Source: an uncultured Actinomycetota bacterium
GTDB lineage: Bacteria; Actinomycetota; Actinomycetes; CAVWCF01
DNA length: 13,393 nt
Assembly (NCBI GenBank): GCA_963753435.1
Contig: CAVWCF010000006.1
Coordinates: forward strand, 1 to 13,393
Direction: 5' to 3'
Below are positions 34 to 12,201 of this stretch, piece by piece. Positions within the stretch are counted from its first letter, which is position 1. Each line of letters opens with the position of its first letter. The translations under genes and the position numbers were made by a program. The notes under the pieces are model-generated. The model did not search any database and had not been told where the DNA came from. It worked only from the letters and a program-made list of their open reading frames with translations.

Positions 34-960
34 TCAGTCTCCATCCGCACGGCCGGCCCCGCGCCCCAGCACGAATGCAATGACGATTGCCACGACCCCC
101 AGGAGCAACGCCACGAGAGGGACAGTTGTACCGATCAGGTTGAGCAGACCTATGGAGTCCTTCGCGTCGGCCGCGGTCTCCTCGACGTACTCGTCGGTGA
201 AGGCCAGTTCCGCATCAAGCAGCGTGAGTGCGTCAACATCAGACCCTGGAACGCGCAGTGACTGCACCTGCTCCTCTTGCCCCTTAACGATCACGCCGGT
301 ACGCGGCTCCACCCAGATCGTCCGGGTGTTGGCGTAGAACCGGTCGGCATCAACGGAAGCATCCTCGGTTCCCACCAAGGTGCCAGGAACCGTCAGGGTG
401 GTGTACTTCTCGGCAGCGATCGTCTGAACGAATCGGTAAACCGGAAGCCCGTACAACTCGTCCTCGCCATCGAACTCGGCCGGCAGCGCCTTGGCGAGCG
501 TCGTGTCGTAGTACTGGTAAGTCGTCTTCTCGGTGTTGAAGGGGAACTTCAACGGCATGATGCCGTTGTAGTCGGTGATCGGCGCACCTTCCAGGTTGCT
601 GTCGCAGCAGTCGACCATCTGTGACGTCTTGCGATCGAAGGCGAACCGCGCCTTCGTATCCGCAATAACGGATTGGTCTGCAGTCAGAACAGGGATGAAG
701 GTGTCGTACACGGCAACATCGCCGTTGCCGGCGTCGACATCGCCAACAGTCGTTCGCAACGCGGTGAGCGGGACATCCTCGACGATCTCCAGCGCTCCGG
801 CATCGAACAGAACGCGCGCCACGCCATCTGACGGCGTCTTCGAATCGGCGTCCAACGGAGCCTTCGCCGCTGCAGGGAGAACGGCGAATCTGAGCACGCC
901 GGCCAGCGCGATCAGGAAAACACCGAGGCCCAGCAGGATGTACGCACTGATCCTTCTCAT
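34..960 (-). CDS. DUF3068 (PorA-like) membrane-anchored envelope protein, family of M. tuberculosis Rv0227c / MSMEG_0317 (LmcA/PgfA); 308 aa
   Basis: ATG with AGGAG 5 nt upstream. N-terminal hydrophobic helix (ILLGLGVFLIALAGVL) followed by KAPLD, C-terminal TM helix (VPLVALLLGVVAIVIAFVL). Family motifs FAFDRKT, KFPFNTEKTTYQYYD, GLPVYRFVQTI, RFYANTRTIWVEPRTGVIVKGQE. Context next to acyltransferase and aftD. Confidence 0.88.
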   Translation of the reverse strand: MRRISAYILLGLGVFLIALAGVLRFAVLPAAAKAPLDADSKTPSDGVARVLFDAGALEIVEDVPLTALRTTVGDVDAGNGDVAVYDTFIPVLTADQSVIADTKARFAFDRKTSQMVDCCDSNLEGAPITDYNGIMPLKFPFNTEKTTYQYYDTTLAKALPAEFDGEDELYGLPVYRFVQTIAAEKYTTLTVPGTLVGTEDASVDADRFYANTRTIWVEPRTGVIVKGQEEQVQSLRVPGSDVDALTLLDAELAFTDEYVEETAADAKDSIGLLNLIGTTVPLVALLLGVVAIVIAFVLGRGAGRADGD

Positions 961-965
961 TCGCG

Positions 966-970
966 CTCCT
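966..970 (-). promoter_or_regulatory. Shine-Dalgarno AGGAG of the DUF3068 gene
   Basis: ctcct on + strand, 5-nt spacer to the ATG at 960. Confidence 0.75.
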
Positions 971-985
971 CAGGACTGCACAGCC

Positions 986-1005
986 GAGACTGACGGAGAG
1001 TGACG
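986..1005. repeat. 10-bp tandem direct repeat GAGACTGACG / GAGAGTGACG
   Basis: Read directly, 9/10 identity. Lies in the divergent intergenic region over the predicted DUF3068 transcription start. Confidence 0.5.
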
Positions 1006-1008
1006 ATA
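1003..1008 (-). promoter_or_regulatory. Putative SigA-type -10 hexamer TATCGT for the DUF3068 gene
   Basis: Matches actinobacterial TANNNT. Lies 42 nt upstream of the ATG, leaving room for a short 5'UTR containing the SD. Confidence 0.4.
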
Positions 1009-1017
1009 GGGCGTGGG

Positions 1018-1031
1018 CGGCATTAATGCCG
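1018..1031. promoter_or_regulatory. Perfect 14-bp palindrome CGGCATTAATGCCG, candidate operator
   Basis: Exact inverted repeat with an AT-rich core, in the middle of the 113-bp spacer between divergent genes. Confidence 0.5.
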
Positions 1032-1073
1032 GGTGAACGGCCAGAGCGTTGTCGGACTGGAATGCTTCAACCA

Positions 1074-1784
1074 ATGGACACTCAGGAGATCCGGCGCCTG
1101 GTGGCGGTCGAGGACCGCCACTGGTGGTTCCGGGAGAAGCGGGCCCGGCTCCGAGCCGCCGTGGCTGACCTGCCCACCACCAGCGCGGTCGAGGTAGGGG
1201 CCGCTGGTGGCGGTAACGCTGCCGCGCTGGCCGATATGGGCTGGGACGTCTGCATCGTCGAACCGGATGCCGAGGGAGGCAGGGTCGCCCGGGAACGCGG
1301 TCTGCCGTCCATCCGGGGGCGCATCGAGACCCTGCCGCTACGAAGCGAATCCGTTGGACTGGCTGTCGCTTTGGACGTTCTCGAGCACATCCCCGATGAC
1401 GAGACCGCCGCATTTGAGTTGTTTCGGGTGCTGCGGCCGGGAGCACGTCTGGTTGTGAATGTGCCCGCGGACATGGCCCTCTGGTCCGGTCACGACGAAG
1501 CCTTGGGACACGTTCGGCGGTACCAGCGGGACGAGCTAGTCAAGCTGCTTCGCGGTGCCGGGTTCGCAGTTCAGTCCTGTGTCTCCTGGAATGTCCTGCT
1601 ACGCCCCGTCGTCCGCATCCGTCGCCGCCGTGCAACCGGCAGCGAGATGCAGGAGCACAATCCGTTCGTCAACTCCGCGCTACGAGCGGTTCTGGCGGCC
1701 GAGCATGCGCTTCCCCTGAGTCGATTCCGCGGCGTGTCGCTGTTCGCGGTTGCACATAGACCCCCTGCGGGCAGGGATGTCTGA
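1074..1784 (+). CDS. Class I SAM-dependent methyltransferase (Methyltransf_11-like); 236 aa from ATG 1074 (alternative starts 1062, 1026)
   Basis: Motif I VEVGAAGGGN, LPLRSESVGLAVALDVLEHI, LRPGARLVVNVPA, WSGHDEALGHVRRY, and N-terminal EDRHWWF typical of glycan-cluster methyltransferases. Confidence 0.9.
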   Translation: MDTQEIRRLVAVEDRHWWFREKRARLRAAVADLPTTSAVEVGAAGGGNAAALADMGWDVCIVEPDAEGGRVARERGLPSIRGRIETLPLRSESVGLAVALDVLEHIPDDETAAFELFRVLRPGARLVVNVPADMALWSGHDEALGHVRRYQRDELVKLLRGAGFAVQSCVSWNVLLRPVVRIRRRRATGSEMQEHNPFVNSALRAVLAAEHALPLSRFRGVSLFAVAHRPPAGRDV

Positions 1785-2973
1785 GCCGGTAGTGGTCACG
1801 TCGGACCGCGCCCGGCTCCCGGCACTCGACGGGGTGCGGGCGATTGCAGCCCTGTCGGTGCTCGTGTTCCACGTGGGCTTCAACACCGGGCTGCCCTACG
1901 ACAACTGGGTGGGCCAGTTGGTCACCCGATTGGACTGGGGCGTCTGCCTCTTCTTCGTCCTGTCGGGCTATCTGCTCAGCGGTCCGTTCATCCGGGCGTC
2001 ACTACCCGGCGGCAGTGTCCGGATGCGCGTCTATGCAGAGCGGCGGGCCCTCCGAATCCTGCCGTTGTACTGGATCAGCCTGGCGGTGGTCGTCTGGCTC
2101 CACAGCGGAACGATCGACTCCCCCGGCCAGGTGGCGAGGACTGCTCTACTCATCCAGCCGTATACGAACCAGGCGGCGATTCCGGGGTTCGAGCAGTCAT
2201 GGTCCATTGCTACGGAGGCGGTCTTCTATGCCCTGCTGCCGACGTTTCCCTTCCTGGTCAGCCTTATGCGGCCCAGGGACGCCCGATCGGTACTGCAGCG
2301 CTGGTGGCTGCTGACCGCCGCGCTGGTGTTGCTCGGCATCGGCTCCACCTGGGTTGCGTGGCAGACCCTGACACCGGATCCGGTCATCAGCTCGACGTGG
2401 TTCCTACAGTTGGCGCCCTGGTTCGCCGGCGGGATCGCGTTGGCCGTGCATGAGGAATCCAGGCGCGTCGGTTTGCCGGGTTGGCGCTTGCTCACCGACG
2501 TGGGATCGAACCCAGGAGCATGCGTGGCCTTGGCCTTCGGCTCCTTCGCGCTGTCGGCGACCCTGTGGGCTGGCAACTTTGAGCCGCTGTCCATCGTGCC
2601 GCTGGAACAGGTGATCCCGAGGCGGCTGCTCTACCTGGGGGCGGCCGTCCTATTGGTCCTTCCCGCGACCGTCGCCGACTCCGCAGACACCGGCTCTCGG
2701 TCCGTAGTGCTGCGCTCGCTGTCCGCGGACTGGCTGCGCCATGTCGGCTTGATCTCCTACGGGATCTTCCTGTGGCATCTACTGGCCTTGGATCTGGCCC
2801 TGAGGTGGTGGGACCTGGAACCCTTCTCCGGCGGGTTCTGGCGCATCCTCATCACGACCCTCGTCGTGAGCCTGGTGCTCGCCGAGATCAGTTGGCGTCT
2901 TGTGGAGCGGCCGCTCCAGAACTACTCGCACCGGCGCCGTCTGGCTCCGCATTCCGTCGCCAAAGGGGTTTGA
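1777..2973 (+). CDS. Membrane O-acyltransferase, Acyl_transf_3/OafA family, no fused SGNH domain; positional equivalent of Rv0228/TmaT; 398 aa
   Basis: LDGVRAIAALSVLVFH, GVCLFFVLSGYL, RRALRILPLYW, WSIATEAVFY, GLISYGIFLWH, SWRLVERP, about 10 TM segments. ATG 1777 overlaps the upstream ORF end by 8 nt. Confidence 0.93.
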   Translation: MSEPVVVTSDRARLPALDGVRAIAALSVLVFHVGFNTGLPYDNWVGQLVTRLDWGVCLFFVLSGYLLSGPFIRASLPGGSVRMRVYAERRALRILPLYWISLAVVVWLHSGTIDSPGQVARTALLIQPYTNQAAIPGFEQSWSIATEAVFYALLPTFPFLVSLMRPRDARSVLQRWWLLTAALVLLGIGSTWVAWQTLTPDPVISSTWFLQLAPWFAGGIALAVHEESRRVGLPGWRLLTDVGSNPGACVALAFGSFALSATLWAGNFEPLSIVPLEQVIPRRLLYLGAAVLLVLPATVADSADTGSRSVVLRSLSADWLRHVGLISYGIFLWHLLALDLALRWWDLEPFSGGFWRILITTLVVSLVLAEISWRLVERPLQNYSHRRRLAPHSVAKGV

Positions 2974-5900
2974 AAGCACCCCGCCACCGAGCGAACGCAC
3001 CGGAGTCGATCGCGATCAGAACGACCAGGGCCGCCAAGCCGGCAAGTACCAGGGCCTGACTCCACCAATACCCGCGTCCAACCGCGTAATTGTCGACCAG
3101 CCACAGCCCCGCAAGTTGACCAGTGACGGCCAATGTAGGACCGGCCCAGGCGATCGCCGCAATCGCTGCTCGCCACCGCGCGGCCCACGCCAGCACAATC
3201 AGAGCGGCGGCCGCGAACCACCCGCCAAGCAGGACTAGAAGCGCCGCCCCGAGTGGCGCGATCCAATTGGCCGCGGCCGCCCGCACCGGCGCCGGCTCGG
3301 GACCGCCGCCGCTGCGGCGCAGGCCGACGAACAGCGCCAGGATGCCAATCGCCAGGCTGGCGACAATCGACCAGCGAACCGCTGACTGCGGTCGGAACTC
3401 CAACAGGACTGTTGTTGCCTCTCCGGCCGGCAGCATCCAGCCCTGTCGCCACCCATCGATCGTCACTGGGTTCAGGACCGTCCCGTCCGCAGTTGTGGCA
3501 CGCCACCCTTCGTTCCGGTTCTCGGTGGTGACGAGGATGCTGGCGGGTCCGGCTGCGACCGTGGCCGTGCGCTCGGCCTGGCCCCATCCGGTCACGGTGA
3601 CCAGACGATGGCTGGTCGGCGTGGCCAACCCGGCCTCGGCGGCGCCGACTTCCCGGGCAATCAGCGATAGGGGGAAGTCCCGGGGCGTGTCCGGCATCTG
3701 GATGCGGTGCTCCCCGGAACTCAGACTCACCGTCCGGCAGGCGAAGAACTCCAGGGGACGAAACGCCTCAACGGCTGCGCGTGTGCCGACCAGGCGCGTC
3801 GGGACGTCGAGCCCGTCAATGCGAAGGGTCGGGCCTGAACCGCAAGGCACAACTACCCGGTCGGTGGGCGCCGCGGACCCGATCAGGTCGGAAATCGCAG
3901 GGATCAGCAGTTCGCTGATCCCCGGCTGCGCCTGCGGGGAGATCCCCACGTCGTATGGCAAGTCAACGAACGAGTCGACTCCGGTTATCTCCAATCGCAG
4001 CGAGGTCGTTCTAAGCGGATCGAAGCTCACGAAGGAGCCGTCGCGCGGTATCTCAAGCGTGCGGACACCATCGTCGCCGACGAGTAACGCCTGTGTGACG
4101 ATTCCGGAGGCGGAACCGGACGAGTGGCGAACTGCCAGGCGATCAACGGTTCGTATCGCGTCCCACGACAACGTGAGTTCCGGGGAAAGATCCGCTGGAT
4201 CGGTGACCCAGGTGGTGCCCGGATCGGCGTCCACAGCGGCGTAGCCGGTGACCTGGGGATCCGCCGTCTGTGATGACGACCAAGCGACACGTAGGTCCGG
4301 ACGTCCGGCGGCCAGGACGGTGTCGGCCCCAGTCCCCGGCGTCACCAACGTCTCCCCCGAAATGCGCCAAACGACCGAATTCGGCAGGGAGACGGCGCGG
4401 TCGATTCGGGTCGTGTCCTCGCCGGTCGCCGGGAGTTGCCGGGAGCAGCGGGTCTCCGTGTCGACGCGGATACAACCGCCGCGGATGAAGGGCGCCCGGC
4501 GAATGCTCAAGCTGGTGGACTCGTCGGCCGCCGGGAGCGCGGCGGTGACCAGGGCCTTTGCGACTGGCAAGCCCGGCCCCTCGATCTCAGCGATCGCAGC
4601 CCGTTGTTCGAACCCGGCTCCCCCGACCACCGTGGCGACCGTCACCCGCAACGTGGTCGCGGGGCCACCTGGCACACCGGCTCGCACCACACCTTCGGGG
4701 TTCGGTGCGATGGCTAGGGACCCGTTCTCCGACGACAGCTCAGCGAGTGTGACCTTCGCCCCGCCCACATCCGTGAAACGGACAGTGACATCGGACAGAT
4801 CCACTGGTTCGCGATAACGGATCTCCAACCACTCGCCGTCTGGCGAGCCGTAATTGCCGGAGGTCCACGCGGTCAACAGGTTCCCATCAGCCCCAGCCCA
4901 CGGTTGCGCCTCGGACACGTGCCTTCCGGGGTTGTCCGCATCAGCCAGTGACGTGGACGCGACCACGTCCGCAACGAGACCGTCATATCGCGCCACTGAC
5001 TGGCGGCCGTCTAGAGGGAAGGGGGTGTAGTCGTTGATGGGTCGCCGTGGCTGCGGTGAATCCGGCGTCAAGGTTGCAGACTCGCCCTCCAAGATCAGCC
5101 CGAAGTTGCGGGTGCGCAGCCGCAGGGTGTCGGTGATCACCTGCTCTGCAACCGCGGCATCGGGCGGCACCCCGTCCCCATCCAGGATCACGGGCCGCGC
5201 TCCGACCACGTCCTGTTCGGCAAGCTGCAGCATGGCCTCCGGGCCCCCACTGGCCCGGACGACTTCTGCTGCTGCAAACGCCGACAACCGCGCCGCGGCC
5301 CCCTGCACCCGAAAGATCTGGATCGACGGCAGGTCACCGTCAAGCCGGGAATCGGCCGCGTTGTCGAACACGGTGATGGTGGTTCCCACATCGGGACCGA
5401 ACTGCGCCACCGGCTGAAGGCCCGGGCTTTCGGCAAGCGTTTGGGCGACCAAACCTGGGCGCGTGGTCAGCGCCCGGCGCCATTCCAGATCGTTTCGCAC
5501 CAGTACGTATTCGACCCCCATACGGGCCAGCAGTTTCGATAGGCCTGCCGAGCCCCGGCCCTCATTGATGCGCTGGTTGATGCCGTCCAGGAGGCGGATG
5601 TTGGCCGCCGACCCGAGGGGTATCTGATTTCGCACTGCCCACGGAACACTCAGCGCTGATTGAAAGGGTTCGTCCAGCGGACGGCCCCAGTAGTACTCCG
5701 CGAAGCCAGAGGCCGGCAGCAGCAGCACCCGGCCTTCAGCGTCTTGGGACTCCAACCAGTCACCCGCGTCATTCCACCATTGCGGGACTTCACTGAAACT
5801 TCCATCCGCCGGGAGTTCCGCTTGCCACAACGGGAGTGTGGATAAGGACAGGCCAACAACAGCCGTGATGGCGGCGGCCGCAGCTGGCACATCGGGCATG

Positions 5901-7123
5901 TTTGATGCCAGGGCCCGTTTCAGACGTCCGAAGTCGACTCGCTCCAGCGCCACGGCAACGCCGACCGCCAGAGGCAGCCGCAGGAGCGGATCGAACTTGC
6001 CCACGTTTCGTAGTGGGCCGAGCGGGCCCTCGAGGAGATAGCGGATCTGCTCGGAGATGGGCGAGTCAAGGCTTCCCACGAAACCCAACGAGAGCAGGCT
6101 GATCGCGATCAGAGCCGACAGCCGCATGAGCGGCGCCTCTCGCATACGGCGCAGCGACAAACCGGCCAGCCCAACGGCTAGAACCAACCCGGTGCCGGCG
6201 ACGAGCCACGGATCGCTCACGAAGCGGTGGGCCGTCGGCCACCAAGGCCCGGTGGGCAGAATCAGTTGCCCCAACCAGTGGCTGGTCCCCCGGCCGACCT
6301 CGGCGAGGTCGGTCCAAGCCGTCGTGACCGAAGCGGGTTCCGTGTACGGGATGAACTGGAGTCCGTACCGGTTCTGAAGCAGCAACGGAACCGTCCACCA
6401 CAGCGTCCCCAGGACCACAAGCCCGGACCACCACGCCAGCAACGCCGACCGCCTAGGTCCTCTGGTCCGGGTCAGCAGGAAGAGCAGCGGGAGTGGGAGG
6501 ACGGCCAGAGTGGCCGTTGCATTGACCCCGCTCATCGAGACCGTACAGAGGGCGGCCAGGGCCGCCCAGCGCCTAGGGGAACCGCTCTCGGTGCCCCGGT
6601 GCAGGAAGTACAGCGTCCACGGCAGCAGCGCAAGCGGCAGCAGTTCGTTCGTGAATCCACCGAACAGCGACAACGCCCTCGGCGCCAGCGCGTAGGCCAG
6701 GCCCGCGCTGACGCGCGCGAAGGTCGAAGCTATCCCCAACCGGCGAGTCAGCCAGATGACGCCGAAGTAGCCCAGCAGAACCAGAGTGATGTGCCAGATC
6801 CGCTGCGCGGTCCAGTCCGGTATCTGGAGTAGGTCGGCTAGCCAGTAGTACGGGCCGATCGGCCACAGGTACCCGGTGGCTTGGTTCTGGATCTGCCCGA
6901 ACCCTGCAGATGGATCCCAGAACCCGAAGACTCTGGAGAGAAACGTCCCGGGAGCCTGGAAGAGATCGAACTTGGTATCCGGCATGACCAGGCCGGGCGC
7001 CTGCCGGAACAGGGCCGTGGCGATGGCCAGGGCCCCGACCCACTCCCAGGCGCCAGCTTGCCGAGACCGACGACGCTGCGCGTCCGCAGTCGCCTCTCGG
7101 GCTTGACGCAGCTGCACCGTCAC
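2888..7123 (-). CDS. aftD: AftD-family (DUF3367) GT-C glycosyltransferase with extracellular F5/8-CBM32-like modules; 1411 aa
   Basis: PDTKFDL, GQIQNQATGYLWP, AYALAPR, MSGVNATAT, FIPYTE...TT, RGTSHW, LRNVGKFDPLLRLPL, WGRPLDEPF, PWAVRNQIPLG, VLVRNDL. Two discoidin-like repeats (AGADGNLLTAW; AAVDADPGTTW), IDGWRQGW and C-terminal TMs. GTG start at 7123 forms a GTGA overlap with the GT4 stop. The family call is strong, the sugar specificity is unproven. Confidence 0.9.
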   Translation of the reverse strand: MTVQLRQAREATADAQRRRSRQAGAWEWVGALAIATALFRQAPGLVMPDTKFDLFQAPGTFLSRVFGFWDPSAGFGQIQNQATGYLWPIGPYYWLADLLQIPDWTAQRIWHITLVLLGYFGVIWLTRRLGIASTFARVSAGLAYALAPRALSLFGGFTNELLPLALLPWTLYFLHRGTESGSPRRWAALAALCTVSMSGVNATATLAVLPLPLLFLLTRTRGPRRSALLAWWSGLVVLGTLWWTVPLLLQNRYGLQFIPYTEPASVTTAWTDLAEVGRGTSHWLGQLILPTGPWWPTAHRFVSDPWLVAGTGLVLAVGLAGLSLRRMREAPLMRLSALIAISLLSLGFVGSLDSPISEQIRYLLEGPLGPLRNVGKFDPLLRLPLAVGVAVALERVDFGRLKRALASNMPDVPAAAAAITAVVGLSLSTLPLWQAELPADGSFSEVPQWWNDAGDWLESQDAEGRVLLLPASGFAEYYWGRPLDEPFQSALSVPWAVRNQIPLGSAANIRLLDGINQRINEGRGSAGLSKLLARMGVEYVLVRNDLEWRRALTTRPGLVAQTLAESPGLQPVAQFGPDVGTTITVFDNAADSRLDGDLPSIQIFRVQGAAARLSAFAAAEVVRASGGPEAMLQLAEQDVVGARPVILDGDGVPPDAAVAEQVITDTLRLRTRNFGLILEGESATLTPDSPQPRRPINDYTPFPLDGRQSVARYDGLVADVVASTSLADADNPGRHVSEAQPWAGADGNLLTAWTSGNYGSPDGEWLEIRYREPVDLSDVTVRFTDVGGAKVTLAELSSENGSLAIAPNPEGVVRAGVPGGPATTLRVTVATVVGGAGFEQRAAIAEIEGPGLPVAKALVTAALPAADESTSLSIRRAPFIRGGCIRVDTETRCSRQLPATGEDTTRIDRAVSLPNSVVWRISGETLVTPGTGADTVLAAGRPDLRVAWSSSQTADPQVTGYAAVDADPGTTWVTDPADLSPELTLSWDAIRTVDRLAVRHSSGSASGIVTQALLVGDDGVRTLEIPRDGSFVSFDPLRTTSLRLEITGVDSFVDLPYDVGISPQAQPGISELLIPAISDLIGSAAPTDRVVVPCGSGPTLRIDGLDVPTRLVGTRAAVEAFRPLEFFACRTVSLSSGEHRIQMPDTPRDFPLSLIAREVGAAEAGLATPTSHRLVTVTGWGQAERTATVAAGPASILVTTENRNEGWRATTADGTVLNPVTIDGWRQGWMLPAGEATTVLLEFRPQSAVRWSIVASLAIGILALFVGLRRSGGGPEPAPVRAAAANWIAPLGAALLVLLGGWFAAAALIVLAWAARWRAAIAAIAWAGPTLAVTGQLAGLWLVDNYAVGRGYWWSQALVLAGLAALVVLIAIDSGAFARWRGAFKPLWRRNAEPDGAGASSSGAAAPQDAN

Positions 7124-8277
7124 GATGCTCGGCGCTGCGGCCGCTGGTCTCCGCTGGATGGCAACCGAACGGCCAGCAGCAGGGACTCGATCTCGGCCAC
7201 CGTGTTCGACCAGGTGAAGCCACGGGACCATTCCTTGCAGTTGTCGGCCCACTCGTTCGCCGACTCAGGATCGGCCAGCAGGTCGATGGCCTCGGCAATC
7301 GCCGGGCCTAGATCGGCAACGGAATCAACGAGCCAGCCTGTTCGACCGTCCTGGACCGCATCCCGGATCCCGGGGGCGTTGACGGCGACCGCAGGCACGC
7401 CCCCGGCAGCGGCCTCCATCAGCGCGAGACCCCAGCCCTCCCGGGTGGACGCGCTCACGGTCAGCCAAGCGGCGGCGAGCCAGGCCTCCTTCTCGTCCTC
7501 GTTGACGCGCCCCGTGACCTCAATCCTGTCGCTGACCGGCGATCGGTCAACGGCCGCGCGGACCGCGTCGGCGTCATCGCCATCACCGACCACCACCAGT
7601 CGCGCGTCGGGACGCCGACGCAGGACGAGGGGCATTGCGTCCACGATCGCCGGTACGCGCTTGTGGCGGACGAGACGGCCCAGCACCAGTACCAATGGCA
7701 GACGGCTGCGCTCACCGGTGCCGGTCGGCTGCGGGGTGCCGTTGTGAACGACCTCTATGGGTCCCAGCCAACGAAGGCGCTGCCTCATCTCGTCCGCGGT
7801 GGACTGTGACACGGCGGCTGTAATCGTGTGCCGATAGACCCTTCGCGCGATGGGCCCCTCCAGCCAGCGGCCCAACGCTGCCACCGGCCGTGGGAAGTAC
7901 ATCCCGAACTGCTCCTGGTGAACGTGATGCGTGACATGCACGACTGGTCGATCGCCAGCGAACAGCGGAGCCATCATCGACAGGCCGCTTTGGCAATCCA
8001 CTACGGCGTCATAGGAGCGTCGGCGGGTGAGCAGGTACCACCACATCCGCGGATAGGCGGTCCACAGCCCCCCTCGCCGAAGCAGCCGAACACCCTCGCG
8101 TCGTTCCTGGCGCGCTTGCCCGGGGGCACGACCGCCAATGAGGGTGACGTCATGGCCCGCAGCTGCGAGTCCGCGAGCCACTTCCCAGGCGAACAGTTCC
8201 GCACCCCCCGCTGCAGGGTGGCCGGGACTCCGCCACGTGCCCACCACAATCCGCAGGCTCGCGCCGGCGGGCGTCAT
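7120..8277 (-). CDS. Glycosyltransferase family 4 (GT-B, retaining), Rv0225-like; 385 aa
   Basis: WRSPGHPAAGGAE, HHVHQEQF, AVSQST, VHNG, GRLVRHKR, VVGDG, and E-x7-E motif REGWGLALMEAAAGGVP. ATG 8277 forms an ATGA overlap with the GT2 stop. Confidence 0.93.
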   Translation of the reverse strand: MTPAGASLRIVVGTWRSPGHPAAGGAELFAWEVARGLAAAGHDVTLIGGRAPGQARQERREGVRLLRRGGLWTAYPRMWWYLLTRRRSYDAVVDCQSGLSMMAPLFAGDRPVVHVTHHVHQEQFGMYFPRPVAALGRWLEGPIARRVYRHTITAAVSQSTADEMRQRLRWLGPIEVVHNGTPQPTGTGERSRLPLVLVLGRLVRHKRVPAIVDAMPLVLRRRPDARLVVVGDGDDADAVRAAVDRSPVSDRIEVTGRVNEDEKEAWLAAAWLTVSASTREGWGLALMEAAAGGVPAVAVNAPGIRDAVQDGRTGWLVDSVADLGPAIAEAIDLLADPESANEWADNCKEWSRGFTWSNTVAEIESLLLAVRLPSSGDQRPQRRAS

Positions 8278-9056
8278 GGACCCGCCGGCTCCCATCCGGC
8301 CGCCAGGGAGGGCGCCCGGGTAGCGGGCGTGGTGGCAGCGCGAGTCGCTGCGGGTACGTCCCGGAACGAGCGCCAGCCATCGCGCATGGTGTGGAAGCCC
8401 GAGCCGGGTTGATGCGTCCAGCGCACTGGTACCTGCCGGACCTGCAGTGACTGACTCCTGGCCCGGGCCAGGACTTCCACGTCGAACGCCCAGCCCTCGG
8501 TGCTCAGTGGCGCAAAGAGACTTCGGGCCGCTGCGGCCGTGAAGAACTTGAACCCGCACTGGGTGTCGTAGCGCTCCCCCAGATGGTGGGCGACCCAGGC
8601 GCGGAACGCGAAGCCACCCCAGCGGCGCAGCGAGTTCTGGCCCACCACGAAAGATCCGCCATGGCTCCTGGCCCCGAGGACAACATCGGCACCGGATTCA
8701 AGGGCCGCAACCACATCGGGAATGGCGCTGGGGTCGGTGGCCCCGTCGGCATCCACGAATCCGACCCACTGGGTGTCGGACGCCAGAATGCCGGCCCGAA
8801 CAGTTCCACCCTTGCCCGGGATGGGGTGCGCCATGGTCCGCACCGGCAGCTCGGCGCTGTCGTGCGCTGCTGCGGCGGCACGAGTGCCATCAGTGCTGGC
8901 ATTGTCGACCACCAGGATCTGCGTGGGTAGTGAATCCGGGAGCTGCTTCAGGTGGCTTGCCAGATTCTCGAGAGGCTCAGCGATCCGCGTTACCTCGTTG
9001 CGGGCGGGAATCACGACCGTAAGGCCGGCGCGAAACGCGCCGTGCTGGGCGGTCAC
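8274..9056 (-). CDS. GT2 polyprenol/dolichyl-phosphate glycosyltransferase (DPG-synthase/Alg5-like); about 260 aa
   Basis: VVIPARNE, VVDNASTDGT, GKGGTVRAG, DxD in FVDADGAT, GAR, DTQCGFKFF, WAFDVEVL, VPVRW. GTG at 9056 lies 5 nt after the upstream stop, with GGAGAG upstream. Confidence 0.9.
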   Translation of the reverse strand: MTAQHGAFRAGLTVVIPARNEVTRIAEPLENLASHLKQLPDSLPTQILVVDNASTDGTRAAAAAHDSAELPVRTMAHPIPGKGGTVRAGILASDTQWVGFVDADGATDPSAIPDVVAALESGADVVLGARSHGGSFVVGQNSLRRWGGFAFRAWVAHHLGERYDTQCGFKFFTAAAARSLFAPLSTEGWAFDVEVLARARSQSLQVRQVPVRWTHQPGSGFHTMRDGWRSFRDVPAATRAATTPATRAPSLAAGWEPAGP

Positions 9057-9061
9057 GTAGT

Positions 9062-9202
9062 TCAGCGCTCTCCGTAGTAGTCGATCAACGGTGTCTGAAC
9101 CGCGGGCGGGGTTTCGGTCAAGGCCTGGACGCCGAAAACCCCAACGCCGACCGCAAGCAGGGCACCGACGACCGCTGCAACTATCGCCCCGATGATTCCC
9201 AT
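9062..9202 (-). CDS. Small membrane/secreted protein, DUF2613-like (Rv0236A-type); 46 aa MGIIGAIVAAVVGALLAVGVGVFGVQALTETPPAVQTPLIDYYGER
   Basis: Perfect AAGGAGG 6 nt upstream of the ATG. One hydrophobic helix, Pro-rich linker and C-terminal YG-x-R, upstream of aftD as in mycobacteria. It is the tail of the 9062..9685 track ORF. Confidence 0.82.
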   Translation of the reverse strand: MGIIGAIVAAVVGALLAVGVGVFGVQALTETPPAVQTPLIDYYGER

Positions 9203-9208
9203 ATAGCG

Positions 9209-9215
9209 CCTCCTT
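9209..9215 (-). promoter_or_regulatory. Consensus Shine-Dalgarno AAGGAGG
   Basis: cctcctt on + strand, 6-nt spacer to ATG 9202. Confidence 0.85.
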
Positions 9216-9222
9216 CGCAGAG

Positions 9223-9231
9223 ACGGTATCA
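9223..9231 (-). promoter_or_regulatory. Putative extended -10 promoter TGA-TACCGT for the microprotein-GT2-GT4-aftD operon
   Basis: TGn-TANNNT that uses the upstream gene's TGA stop, ending 7 nt before the SD. Confidence 0.45.
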
Positions 9232-10941
9232 GCGAAATGGGCCGACGGCACGGTCTTGGGTGGTGGCCCGATGGGGTGACGCAACGGCCCAGAGCAGGGC
9301 ACCCGCCCACACGGCGAGGCCCAGCCAGGCGACCCAACGACCCACTACCGGGCCCGGGTACCACCCGACCGGGTCGACTCGGTACAGCCGAACCGTTCCG
9401 TTGGACACCACCTCCTCCGCCCCGCGCAACGATTCGTCGGAGACAAGCGCGAAGCCACTGGCGTCGAGCCAGATCCATCGGGCGCCTGCTGCGCGCGCCA
9501 CCTCCACCGGAGACTGACCGGATCGCAACGCTGCCGTGACCTCCGCGGCCACCACGCTCTCCCCAGCCACCCGCACGGACCCGACCTCGATTCCGTCGTT
9601 CCAGATGACCGGAACGGGTGCGATCTTCGTGAGGGGGTCGAGAACCGTCGTGTTGCTCCAGGTGGTGGTTCGGTAGCCGGCCCAAGGCAGGCTCAGGATC
9701 GGGCCGGGATCACTGCGGACCTCAGTCAATGCGGCATTCCAGTCCGAAGTCGGGGGTTCGACCGGTACAACTCGCCCGCTCAGACCCCAGGCCAAGGCGG
9801 GGGTCAGAGCAATTGGTGCGACCAGGCCCAGGACGGCGGCCACACGCCCGGCCAAGGCACCACGCCGAGCTACGGCCAGCACGATGCAACCCAGCCCCAG
9901 GGACAGCGGCAGCGCCCAGAGCCCGACCCACTTCTGCCCGTCCCTCAAGACGCCAAGCCCCGGGATGTCCAGCGACGCCAAGGAGTCGCGCACGGCTGGG
10001 AGGCTCGACAAGAAAGCGAGGAGGAGTCCCGCGCCTCCTACCCAGAGTGCGGAGCGGACCGGGACGCGATCAGGGTCATCGTCGCCCGCACTGCTGTATC
10101 GCACAGCGCCCCAGATCGCCACGACGACCAGGAGCAGAACCAAGAGCGCCCCGACCAATTGATCGCGGCCCGGCACGTCGGAGCGGGAACTCCAGAACCC
10201 CCCGAGGGTGACAAGGCTGCCCAGGGTGGTCAGGGGTCCGTCCGCCCTGGGAGCAAAGGCGGAAAAGCCGTTCGGATCGCTGTACGCATCACCCCGAGCG
10301 AGAGCCAAGAGCAGCCAGGGGGCGCTGGCTAACAGCCAGAGAGACAGCCACCTGACCCAGGCCCGGAAGTCGGCGCGGTCAACTGCGAGGACGACAACCA
10401 CCACAACTGCGAGAAGCAGTGCGGCGGAGACACCACCGAGGCACCCCAGCACCAGGGCAACTGCTCCGACCCGGGCATGACGGGGATCCCTGCTGATGGA
10501 GGCGACCACCCAGGGCACTGCCGCATAGCCGACCAACAGCGCCCACTGGCCGATGGCCAAGCGCTCGAAGACGAAGGGGTTCCACACATACAACAGACCC
10601 GCAACAGCGCCGCCGGGCCACCAAGTGTCACGAAGGCACCAGCGTGCGCCGAGCCCCGCAACCACCAGGATCCCCAGAAGCAACGCGCGGTAGGTGAGCT
10701 GGGGGAAAGGCAGAGCTGCCAGTCCCGCGACCAGCGCGTCGCTGGGGACATTGCGCGGCTGCGCCGCATCGACGCCAAGCGCGGCATCGGAAAACGGCAT
10801 GTCCGGCAACAACAACAGGTCGTAGACCGCGAACCAGCCCGGCTGAAGCCACGGTGCCCCGACCAGCAAGACCCCGGCAACGACGACTCCCAGTCCCCAC
10901 CGGGAATTCCTGGGGTTGACATGTCCCGCGGGTGGCGCCAC
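9229..10941 (-). CDS. Rv0226c-like polytopic membrane protein, probable GT-C-fold glycosyltransferase; about 570 aa (start uncertain, GTG 10941)
   Basis: PGWFAVYDL, ALGVDAAQPRNVPSDALVA, YVWNPFVFERLAIGQWALLVGYA, FAPRADGPLTTLGSLVTLGGFW, GVLRDGQKW, VLDPL. Many TM helices plus an extracytoplasmic domain and a final TM. Confidence 0.8.
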   Translation of the reverse strand: MAPPAGHVNPRNSRWGLGVVVAGVLLVGAPWLQPGWFAVYDLLLLPDMPFSDAALGVDAAQPRNVPSDALVAGLAALPFPQLTYRALLLGILVVAGLGARWCLRDTWWPGGAVAGLLYVWNPFVFERLAIGQWALLVGYAAVPWVVASISRDPRHARVGAVALVLGCLGGVSAALLLAVVVVVVLAVDRADFRAWVRWLSLWLLASAPWLLLALARGDAYSDPNGFSAFAPRADGPLTTLGSLVTLGGFWSSRSDVPGRDQLVGALLVLLLVVVAIWGAVRYSSAGDDDPDRVPVRSALWVGGAGLLLAFLSSLPAVRDSLASLDIPGLGVLRDGQKWVGLWALPLSLGLGCIVLAVARRGALAGRVAAVLGLVAPIALTPALAWGLSGRVVPVEPPTSDWNAALTEVRSDPGPILSLPWAGYRTTTWSNTTVLDPLTKIAPVPVIWNDGIEVGSVRVAGESVVAAEVTAALRSGQSPVEVARAAGARWIWLDASGFALVSDESLRGAEEVVSNGTVRLYRVDPVGWYPGPVVGRWVAWLGLAVWAGALLWAVASPHRATTQDRAVGPFR

Positions 10942-10946
10942 CGGGT

Positions 10947-10956
10947 TACCGTGCCA
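10947..10956. promoter_or_regulatory. Overlapping divergent -10 elements: TACCGT (+, 10947-10952) and TGG-CACGGT (-, 10956-10948)
   Basis: Both lie in the 48-bp gap between divergent starts. The minus hexamer ends 6 nt before GTG 10941, which is leaderless spacing. Confidence 0.35.
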
Positions 10957-10989
10957 CGACTTGCGGCGTCGGCGGAGAGGCGAGGCCAA

Positions 10990-12201
10990 GTGGCGACACG
11001 GACCCGGCAATGGCGGCTGGCGCCATCAGCCTTCGTCGCCATCGCCAGTTGGTTGTCGGGAGCCCTGTTCTTCGCCCTACTGGCCCTGAGCGCATGGGCG
11101 CTGGGAAGACAGGAGTTCGGAGTCGCGGCGTCGCTCTTCGCCGTAGTAACGGTCTCGTTCGTCGCAGCGCTTGGCCTGCAGGCGACGGTGGCCCGCTCCG
11201 AGCGCACCAACCCGGTTCCAAGGTCCACCTCGATTCGCCTGACCGGCTGGGTGGCAATCGTTGCCGGGGTTGGGACTGCCTTGATGGCGCCATTCCTCGA
11301 CGTCCCGGTGTTGAGTTCGGCCCTTGTCGTGACGCTTGCCATCGCGCCACTGGTGCTCCTGGCGGATCCACTCGGTCGGGTACAAGGCAGGGAGGAGTTC
11401 AACCGGCTGGCGCGCTGGCTCATGCTCGGAGCGGCACTGCGAGTGCTCGGCGGGGTGCCCGGTTTGGTCCTCGGTTCGGGCCTCGGGGTCGTCCTGGGAA
11501 CCGGAGCCGGCACTGCCCTTGCGGCAGCACTGCTGTGGTCGTGGTCGGCGCCCGGGCCCGCGCCGGGAACCAGTGTCCCGGCACTTCGGGGAGCGCTGGC
11601 GGCGACCGCATCGTTGGGCGGGGTACTAGTCCTCGCGAACCTCGATGTGGTCCTCGGTCGAGGCCTTCTCAGCGCCGATGACGCCGGGCTGTACGCGGCA
11701 GGAGCCCTCATCGCGAAGATCGCCTTCTGGGCCCCGTCGTTCCTAGTCCTGCTCGGTCTCCCTGCGTTTGCGGACCCCTCGCGACGTCGAACCACGTTCT
11801 TCACCGTTCTGACGGCCACCGGCGCGTTGGCCGGAATGATCGCGCTCGCCGTGGCGATCGCCCCGAACCTGGTGCTGCCGTTCATCGGCGGCCAGTCATA
11901 CGAGCCGATCGCGGACCTGTTGCCGGTATTCGCATTGCTCGGTGGGCTCGTCGCGATGATTCAGGTGGTCGCGTACAGCCGCATCGGGCGCGGTGGGCGG
12001 CGTACCGGCCCGTTGTTGTTGGGGGCGGCCGCCCTGATCGGCGTTGTCAGCATCGCACTCGCTCCTGGGACACCGAGCGCACTGATCGCCACCTACATCG
12101 CAGCGATAGTCCCGACGGCGCTCTTGGCGGTCCTACTCGAACTTCGCGCCCTTCAGTTCCCGGCGCGCGCTTCTGGGGCTGGCCAGGGCCCCGCCGAGTA
12201 G
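10990..12201 (+). CDS. Polysaccharide biosynthesis protein / Wzx-like MOP-superfamily flippase; about 403 aa (alternative starts 10921, 10951)
   Basis: About 12 TM segments. EFGVAASL, ALGLQATVAR, GRVQGREEFNRLA, ANLDVVLGRGLLSADDAGLYAAGALIAKIAFWAP. GGAGAGG 9 nt upstream of GTG 10990. Confidence 0.78.
   Translation: MATRTRQWRLAPSAFVAIASWLSGALFFALLALSAWALGRQEFGVAASLFAVVTVSFVAALGLQATVARSERTNPVPRSTSIRLTGWVAIVAGVGTALMAPFLDVPVLSSALVVTLAIAPLVLLADPLGRVQGREEFNRLARWLMLGAALRVLGGVPGLVLGSGLGVVLGTGAGTALAAALLWSWSAPGPAPGTSVPALRGALAATASLGGVLVLANLDVVLGRGLLSADDAGLYAAGALIAKIAFWAPSFLVLLGLPAFADPSRRRTTFFTVLTATGALAGMIALAVAIAPNLVLPFIGGQSYEPIADLLPVFALLGGLVAMIQVVAYSRIGRGGRRTGPLLLGAAALIGVVSIALAPGTPSALIATYIAAIVPTALLAVLLELRALQFPARASGAGQGPAE

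Follow-up and report, generated by a model that had tools for sequence, protein, structure and literature searches.

Introduction

The tmaT locus of Mycobacteriales comprises aftD, tmaT (Rv0228), lmcA-pgfA (Rv0227c), mmpA (Rv0226c), a glycosyltransferase family 4 (GT4) gene (Rv0225/cgp_3166), mtrP (Rv0224c) and a DUF2613 gene (10.64898/2026.07.31.741767, 10.64898/2026.07.31.741936, PMC8698533). A TmaT–AftD complex has been described, and the two 2026 preprints that describe it leave open its substrates and those of MmpA, the GT4, MtrP and even TmaT (10.64898/2026.07.31.741767, 10.64898/2026.07.31.741936). Mutants of aftD cluster with mycolate genes, mmpA and MSMEG0311, not with arabinogalactan genes, and a glycan has been raised as a possible substrate of TmaT in two preprints (10.64898/2026.07.15.738315, 10.64898/2026.07.31.741936). 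The genes of the locus are essential in mycobacteria and are proposed drug targets. Here we describe a relative of this locus from an uncultured actinobacterium. The window, which is the whole stretch of 13,393 bp that was analysed, is the entire contig C6 assigned to genome bin G000. It holds a near-complete envelope module of the tmaT-aftD type, with another methyltransferase in the place of MtrP. The distinctive feature of the locus is a dedicated family 2 glycosyltransferase (GT2) resembling dolichyl-phosphate-hexose synthases, which lies in a swappable middle part of the module.

A wide range of AftD is already in print, with homologues in 11 other actinobacterial orders (Tan et al., 10.1101/2019.12.22.885152). 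DUF3068, the domain of PgfA, has been called actinobacterial and the function of PgfA mycobacterium-specific (Gupta et al., 10.1101/633768). MmpA has been said to have no homologues outside corynebacteria and mycobacteria (Cashmore et al. 2021, PMC8698533). Stepwise gains of arabinogalactan genes and then of mycolate genes have also been described (PMC6194230). By term search, neither Streptomyces nor Actinobacteria is named in the main texts of 10.64898/2026.07.31.741767 and 10.64898/2026.07.31.741936. A literature search that covered mainly the main texts of non-subscription papers turned up no study of the complete locus beyond Mycobacteriales and none of its GT2 variant.

Results

All nine genes that an earlier sequence-only reading had named between positions 34 and 12201 are real and unbroken, with no internal stops (0), and its description of contiguous envelope genes holds. 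As in the tmaT locus, the AftD, MmpA and PgfA genes are clustered and their products score above curated cut-offs, the two GT4s share a family, a homologue of the microprotein is present, and the AT3 acyltransferase keeps the R-X10-H motif and the CoA-binding arginines. Unlike the tmaT locus, the window has an unrelated methyltransferase for MtrP and a dedicated GT2, and its host, if C6 belongs to the G000 bin, lacks mycolate, arabinan and decaprenyl-phospho-arabinose (DPA) genes. A Wzx flippase is found in the window and in some mycolate hosts, and was not found in three genomes of genus g41.

GtrABC-type systems consist of a GT2 polyprenyl-phosphate-sugar synthase, a flippase and a GT-C transferase. 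The window likewise has a locus-specific GT2, a flippase and GT-C transferases. It differs from these systems in that its flippase is a 400-aa MOP/Wzx protein and not GtrA (Pfam gave no GtrA match for any gene of the window), and in that it has two GT-Cs together with a GT4, an AT3, a methyltransferase, PgfA and a microprotein. Wzx/Wzy-dependent assembly is resembled in the flippase fold (WzxE, PDB 9G9N), in a cytoplasmic glycosyltransferase and in an O-acyltransferase. Unlike in that pathway, no priming phosphoglycosyl transferase, Wzy or Wzz was recognised in the window locus, and extension would be carried out by GT-Cs of the AftD and MmpA types.

The window AftD scores 674 bits on PF11847 (cut-off 26) and aligns over its full length with Mycobacterium abscessus AftD (6W98/6WBX, E 4e-146), with which it shares the layout of a GT-C domain and carbohydrate-binding modules. 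All seven active-site residues are retained, as K51, D53, E262, W283, K376, D484 and E485 of the window protein correspond to K39, D41, E251, W272, K361, D474 and E475 of the M. abscessus enzyme. Across 105 AftD homologues, K39 is kept in 101, E251 and W272 in 105 each, and D474 in 103. Arabinofuranosyl transfer by the window protein is only putative and, unlike for the described arabinofuranosyltransferase, the donor genes for DPPR synthase, DprE1 and DprE2 were not found in G000. A second GT2 subfamily is accompanied by another AftD type, which is divergent and often differs at the position of D41 (L034, L036, L085, L086, L095, L099, L103, L104, L123, L062-L068, L070), and both AftD types occur together in several loci of the same class.

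MmpA scores 319 bits on NF053599 (cut-off 210). The best Foldseek match of its AF2 model (pLDDT 80) was AftD (E 7e-9), followed by AglB, STT3 and ArnT, and profile comparison showed homology to the N-terminal half of AftD (HHalign probability 98.5). This resemblance was pointed out earlier (Parks et al., 10.64898/2026.07.31.741767; Cashmore et al., PMC8698533). In the HHalign alignment the invariant D41 of MmpA falls on AftD D41 and its RDxxK motif on AftD K361, and MmpA is therefore predicted as a likely second active GT-C enzyme. The microprotein has one transmembrane helix and a C-terminal tail with the aligned motif PLIxYG. It had no match in Pfam (1e-4) and did not reach the gathering score of DUF2613 (PF11021). 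A profile built from 53 non-mycolate homologues gave it 40 bits and gave 19-21 bits to three microproteins of the mycolate family, one of which is a Pfam-confirmed DUF2613. In locus L034 the microprotein is fused in frame to MmpA, and it is likely a GT-C subunit, although putative.

The GT4 has an EX7E motif at 280 and scores 364 bits on our Rv0225-family profile, on which the next paralogue reaches 146. The tree of this family includes the GT4s of the Emb-bearing family, and the window GT4 belongs to a subclade with those of GT2-linked loci (support 99). Homologues of the window GT2 are 40-49% identical, and the named ones, which occur in Nocardioides and Micromonospora, are mostly called dolichyl-phosphate beta-glucosyltransferase. 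Its top PDB match was the DPM synthase 5MLZ (E 6e-6), the GT-A DxD motif is present as DAD at 102, and matches to AglJ and DPhHxTase in NCBIfam were below the cut-offs. It is distinct from the lnt-linked Ppm1-like GT2 on contig C1 of G000, and is likely a polyprenyl-phosphate-hexose synthase, as judged from these family relations. The flippase had no Pfam match (1e-4). Its AF2 model (pLDDT 90) best matched the lipid III flippase WzxE (TM 0.76, E 1e-6), and it resembles Atlas clusters named polysaccharide biosynthesis protein. It is a Wzx-type MOP protein whose transport activity is only predicted. The presence in the locus of a donor synthase-like GT2 and a Wzx-like flippase, also proposed from the sequence, thus agrees with the names of homologues and the predicted fold.

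The methyltransferase was tried as an MtrP/Rv0224c orthologue, as the sequence-only reading had assigned it, and was rejected. It scored 57 bits on the MtrP profile, compared with 343-407 bits for the training sequences and 155-168 bits for two held-out partial members, and no MtrP was found by profile search in the window or anywhere in G000. Homologues of the window type (215-236 bits) occur in 6 other GT2-type loci. The AT3 protein scores 96 bits on PF01757 (cut-off 31). By alignment and spacing, its R21-X10-H32, R90, R93 and R378 correspond to R27, H38, R96, R99 and R365 of TmaT, which form the acetyl-CoA site of M. smegmatis TmaT (10.64898/2026.07.31.741936). PgfA scores 261 bits on PF11271 (cut-off 29.5) and 269 bits on NF053601 (cut-off 160), has hydrophobic segments at both termini by hydropathy, and is likely an extracytoplasmic lipid carrier, a role that is still putative. 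Some loci hold two genes of the PgfA family (L061:3976-6123; L161, L162). In family f3 the second of these sits with AT3 and the ubiA-dprE1-dprE2 cassette.

The host bin G000 has 2.17 Mb in 6 contigs and is 97.98% complete with 0.19% contamination. It had no match to Emb or AftA, and its best matches were 25 bits for DPPR synthase (cut-off 207) and 96 bits for Pks13 (cut-off 2100). DprE1 had no match, and DprE2 had weak matches to short-chain dehydrogenases alone. These absences bear out the suggestion of a non-mycolate host. Two PF00756 matches were considered as antigen 85 and rejected (24-29 bits over short stretches). The genome encodes a PIP synthase and a phosphatidylinositol mannoside (PIM) acyltransferase adjoining a GT4, one GT87, lnt beside the Ppm1-like GT2, a WecA-like transferase, LCP and an ABC-type wall-polymer cluster. 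The locus was earlier called self-contained, a description that is unproven: no priming transferase or nucleotide-sugar gene was recognised in it, and the WecA-like, PIM and lnt-ppm1 genes lie elsewhere in G000. The first 400 bp of its contig C5 match C1 near 1,696,500-1,696,900 at 96.5%, a repeat or strain variation.

AftD was matched in 9 of 41 relatives and in 52 of 301 genomes of the phylum (E up to 0.001), other classes included; the latter tally counts one unpublished genome, G126, which was left out of the later searches. Emb was matched in 3 and DPPR synthase in 25 of the 41 AftD carriers tested, and an AftD-based search of genome contigs for related loci gave 7 distant loci. MmpA was found in 103 of 301 genomes of the class, 17 of them in f40, the family with Emb and AftA, and 86 in 17 other families, which contradicts the published range (PMC8698533, as stated there). 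Named homologues of MmpA occur in Nocardioides, Marmoricola, Thermomonospora, Actinomadura, Streptosporangium, Sphaerisporangium and Microbispora. In family f28, MmpA was matched in none of 20 genomes (0/20). In f28 the loci L031 and L040-L043 are without MmpA and flippase and keep AftD, GT4, MtrP and the microprotein, with PgfA in four. The same five clusters contain a Trm112-like gene (PF03966; L031 at 3589-3840), which gives genomic support to the partnership of MtrP with the Trm112-like ML1347 predicted in 10.64898/2026.07.15.738315.

Of the 102 MmpA carriers besides G000, 80 entered further searches, with 13 f40 genomes, 6 tested before and 3 weak or partial ones omitted. Emb was unmatched in 74 of the 76 searched carriers outside f40, the other two having weak distant matches (57-102 bits), and DPPR synthase was unmatched in 45. 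AftA was strong in f40 alone (3/3) among 30 genomes, with two weak matches elsewhere. Family f118 has pairs of distant Emb-like genes of 57-102 bits, below mycobacterial scores (G571:C5:492300-496524; G581:C46:2295-13103).

Gene content was counted in 55 stretches of up to 20 kb centred on mmpA outside f40, some of which are ended by a contig edge, with our own profile thresholds, a codon-model gene caller of our own and a six-frame recount; this caller overlooked some AT3 genes and did not work on L094. AftD was present in 52, GT4 in 53, the microprotein in 44 and MtrP in 41, and within the stretch the flippase was present in 36, PgfA in 32, AT3 in 26 and polA in 22. Co-occurrence of the module is far above chance, as anticipated from the window, and AftD, MmpA, GT4 and the microprotein are its conserved core across many non-mycolate families. 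The flippase, which had been taken for an addition special to this locus, is also present in 4 of 8 f40 stretches, and a flippase in the locus is not new. In mycolate-type f40 hosts outside g41 a Wzx-like flippase adjoins mmpA (L045:13068-14402, L118, L119, L120). A flippase search of three g41 genomes, G004 and G029, run with no positive control, was empty. The locus is patchy in non-mycolate hosts, and it is therefore probably dispensable there.

The middle of the module is exchangeable and consists of the GT2 with the window-type methyltransferase, of MtrP (most loci), or of ubiA-dprE1-dprE2. The last cassette lies inside 7 of 64 loci outside f40, and in three f3 stretches it adjoins a split-off half of the module. 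Eight of 80 genomes carried the window GT2 subfamily, beside mmpA in 8/8, and with G000 and G004 there are 10 carriers in four families, again with the GT2 beside mmpA in all 10. MtrP is absent genome-wide from 9 and DPPR synthase from 8 of these carriers, and the window-type methyltransferase lies within the locus in 7. Genus g272 has MtrP in 0 of 6 GT2 carriers versus 5 of 8 non-carriers. In genus g4 two GT2 carriers are without MtrP and DPPR synthase, and G417 has both without the GT2. Five GT2-linked GT4s formed one clade (support 99), and the window AftD grouped with 3 of 4 other GT2-linked AftDs (support 99). Among the 10 GT2-type loci, in the stretch examined, only the window combines AT3, flippase, PgfA and methyltransferase.

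Discussion

Our analysis suggests that the locus builds a lipid-linked surface glycan, which is flipped after its assembly, lengthened by two GT-Cs and O-acylated on the outer side, and on balance we favour this reading. Every catalytic step in it is deduced from family membership, conserved residues or fold prediction. The GT2 would charge polyprenyl phosphate with a hexose, and on the cytoplasmic side the GT4 would add to a lipid acceptor a sugar taken from a nucleotide donor. The methyltransferase may O-methylate an intermediate. The Wzx-type flippase would then move the lipid-linked sugar outward. There the flipped glycan would be transferred or extended by MmpA and AftD, to which the microprotein likely belongs as a subunit. 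AT3 would O-acylate the glycan outside, and PgfA would carry the lipid onward. The glycan likely uses a hexose rather than an arabinose donor. DPA synthesis is absent from G000 and from the 45 non-mycolate carriers without DPPR synthase, and therefore the donor of AftD orthologues in such hosts is probably not DPA.

Several observations weigh against this scheme. The identity of the sugar is not readable from the sequence, and the product is a prediction from the genes. GtrA-type proteins are the usual flippases for sugars on polyprenyl monophosphate, and the usual substrates of Wzx are pyrophosphate-linked. It is therefore possible that the GT2 and the flippase do not act in series, and two GT2-type loci (L035, L105) are without a flippase. 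AT3 is present in 26 of the 55 loci and in 0 of 6 GT2-type loci of g272. One genus contributes 6 of the 10 GT2 carriers, which limits the independent lineages to four at most, and MtrP is also absent from 3 of 8 genomes of the same genus that have no GT2. A separate polA-hydrolase-rpsA region, in which the module is missing, lies on the main contig of G000, and the codon usage of C6 deviates more than that of 73 of 74 windows of G000. An R385/D386-type motif, which in M. smegmatis AftD lies at the interface and is required for TmaT binding (10.64898/2026.07.31.741936), was not evident by eye in the poorly aligned region of the window protein or of AftDs outside f40, unlike in the tmaT locus. 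The predicted-complex score for the N-terminal domain of AftD with AT3 was 0.17 (mark 0.32), which speaks neither for nor against an interaction. Lastly, many hosts are without both the GT2 and DPA synthesis (0/10 for each in family f11), and in these a general donor, for example polyprenyl-phosphate-mannose made by Ppm1, could serve.

Such a donor is central to the strongest alternative, in which the module matures a mannose lipoglycan of the PIM or lipomannan type, the GT-Cs use polyprenyl-phosphate-mannose from Ppm1, and the locus GT2 supplies a side-branch sugar only. The hosts without GT2 and DPA synthesis fit this alternative, as do the PIM-related genes, the lnt-linked Ppm1-like GT2 and the GT87 of G000. 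In Corynebacterium glutamicum, NCgl2760, a member of the PgfA family, affects lipomannan and lipoarabinomannan (PMC8698533, 10.1101/633768). However, loss of tmaT, mmpA or mtrP in the same species leaves both unaffected (PMC8698533), and a Wzx-type flippase, present in 36 of the 55 loci, would not be needed. We consider maturation of a mannose lipoglycan unlikely.

The two MMPL-family proteins encoded in G000 raise a different alternative, in which, as in corynebacteria, a trehalose or other sugar lipid is acetylated and exported via MmpL, ordinary fatty acids replace mycolates, and the glycosyltransferases act as scaffold or regulators. Their genes lie on contigs other than C6, however, and MtrP is absent. 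AT3 is the least constant member of the module, and the dedicated GT2, the flippase and the exchangeable donor cassettes indicate glycan assembly. Export of such a lipid appears improbable.

A combination of GT4, Wzx and GT-C is also the layout of an en-bloc system, in which OST-like GT-Cs would move a Wzx-flipped lipid-linked oligosaccharide onto secreted or membrane proteins. After AftD, the folds nearest to that of MmpA are indeed those of two oligosaccharyltransferases, AglB and STT3 (E about 2e-4), but this likeness reflects the general GT-C fold (TM 0.34-0.46). The loci showed no conserved gene for an acceptor, and we came across no report of such a role for the mycobacterial orthologues. 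Protein glycosylation is rated slightly lower still, as a very improbable function.

Assignment of C6 to G000 is likely, the link itself being unproven. No sequence overlap joins the contig to another contig of the bin, and a search of metagenome contigs with its hydrolase gave 2 relatives (57-58%) and no extension of C6. That C6 was mis-binned from an arabinan or mycolate maker and holds ordinary orthologues is hardly credible: the window being a whole contig without overlap, its atypical codon usage and a hydrolase only 48% identical to that of the main contig would fit, but this hydrolase clusters with two genomes of the same family (support 83) in which no Pks13 or DprE1 was matched (88% and 58% complete; DprE1 search without positive control), its third-position GC content (GC3, 0.79) is nearer to the median of G000 (0.84) than to these relatives (0.92-0.97), its AftD and GT4 lie outside the clades of the Emb family, and the GT2 was absent from 4/4 Emb-family genomes. 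A Pks13 match over the cut-off in G508 was rejected as the sum of adjacent modular polyketide synthase matches, each of at most 755 bits. Origin of C6 from another member of the family of G000 is a lesser but appreciable chance, and mis-binning within the family would leave the reading of the locus unchanged.

The proposal that the module is more general than the mycomembrane is borne out by its range, and the word older draws on this distribution and on midpoint-rooted trees rather than on a rooted test. In these trees the GT4s of f40, and likewise its AftDs, each form one clade amid non-mycolate sequences, which is compatible with an origin before Mycobacteriales and no proof of it. Mycobacteriales likely retained a module of greater age and linked it to the transport of mycolates. 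A more far-reaching view, which we put forward tentatively and hold to be less likely than the assembly scheme above, is that the tmaT locus represents an ancient actinobacterial pathway, complete in itself, that makes a lipid-linked glycan with O-acyl and O-methyl groups and has interchangeable donor cassettes (GT2 for hexose, DPA for arabinose). In both mycobacteria and corynebacteria this glycan would be the true substrate of AftD, MmpA, the Rv0225 GT4, MtrP and TmaT. The defects of their mutants in mycolate transport and arabinogalactan would be downstream, and the mycomembrane would have been built on top. For the evolution of the mycomembrane, it matters that a core piece appears outside the stepwise gains described in PMC6194230. 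The present setting removes the accepted substrates of the tmaT locus. Non-mycolate hosts offer a clean background in which to find its product, a question that becomes testable in simple hosts, and the natural swaps of GT2 with methyltransferase, MtrP and the DPA cassette predict what each part supplies.

Gene layout and neighbouring genes

The features of the window are listed in Table 1. On the minus strand the block runs mmpA, microprotein, GT2, GT4, aftD, and the 4-nt stop/start overlaps at both GT2/GT4 and GT4/AftD suggest that these five genes form a coupled operon. The methyltransferase and AT3 genes are convergent with aftD, the 3' ends of AT3 and aftD overlapping by 86 nt, and the pgfA and flippase genes flank the block. 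Two estuary runs from separate studies contain related sequence, mostly 95-99% identical, for 30/30 bins of the window, and a sediment run, which may come from the source sample, contains it for 28/30. Contig pieces from sequencing runs bridge several gene junctions, and none covers the whole locus. The Rfam scan of the window gave no matches, and scans of it for promoters, terminators and repeats gave nothing above chance.

Table 1. Features of the window, with position, strand and supporting characteristics
PgfA/LmcA (DUF3068, Rv0227c family)	34..960	(-)	308 aa; PF11271, NF053601
Class I S-adenosylmethionine-dependent (SAM) methyltransferase, family other than MtrP	1074..1784	(+)	PF08241
AT3 membrane O-acyltransferase, TmaT-like	1777..2973	(+)	PF01757
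AftD orthologue, GT-C domain and carbohydrate-binding modules	2888..7123	(-)	1411 aa; PF11847, PF24607
GT4 glycosyltransferase, Rv0225/MSMEG_0311 family	7120..8277	(-)	PF00534/PF13439
GT2, dolichyl-phosphate beta-glucosyltransferase type	8274..9056	(-)	PF00535
DUF2613-like microprotein	9062..9202	(-)	46 aa; own profile; strong Shine-Dalgarno
MmpA (Rv0226c family), GT-C fold	9229..10941	(-)	NF053599
Wzx-type MOP flippase	10990 (or 10921)..12201	(+)	predicted fold, own profile
Alpha/beta-hydrolase (GxSxG), truncated by contig end	12153..13393	(-)	weak PF12146/PF00561

The alpha/beta-hydrolase is a recurrent neighbour of the module on its polA side (13 of 64 loci), and its full-length homologues begin, by eye, with a signal or lipobox-like sequence. 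In many genomes this gene follows polA and marks a site that holds differing glycan modules (L143, L144). The site has an MtrP-type module in G002 and no module in G001 or on the main contig of G000. A membrane protein of some 600 aa that lacks annotation (no Pfam match, E 0.1) was present in 20 of 64 loci, for example at L033:1911-3797. Locus L033 holds three copies of this protein, which is possibly another GT-C.

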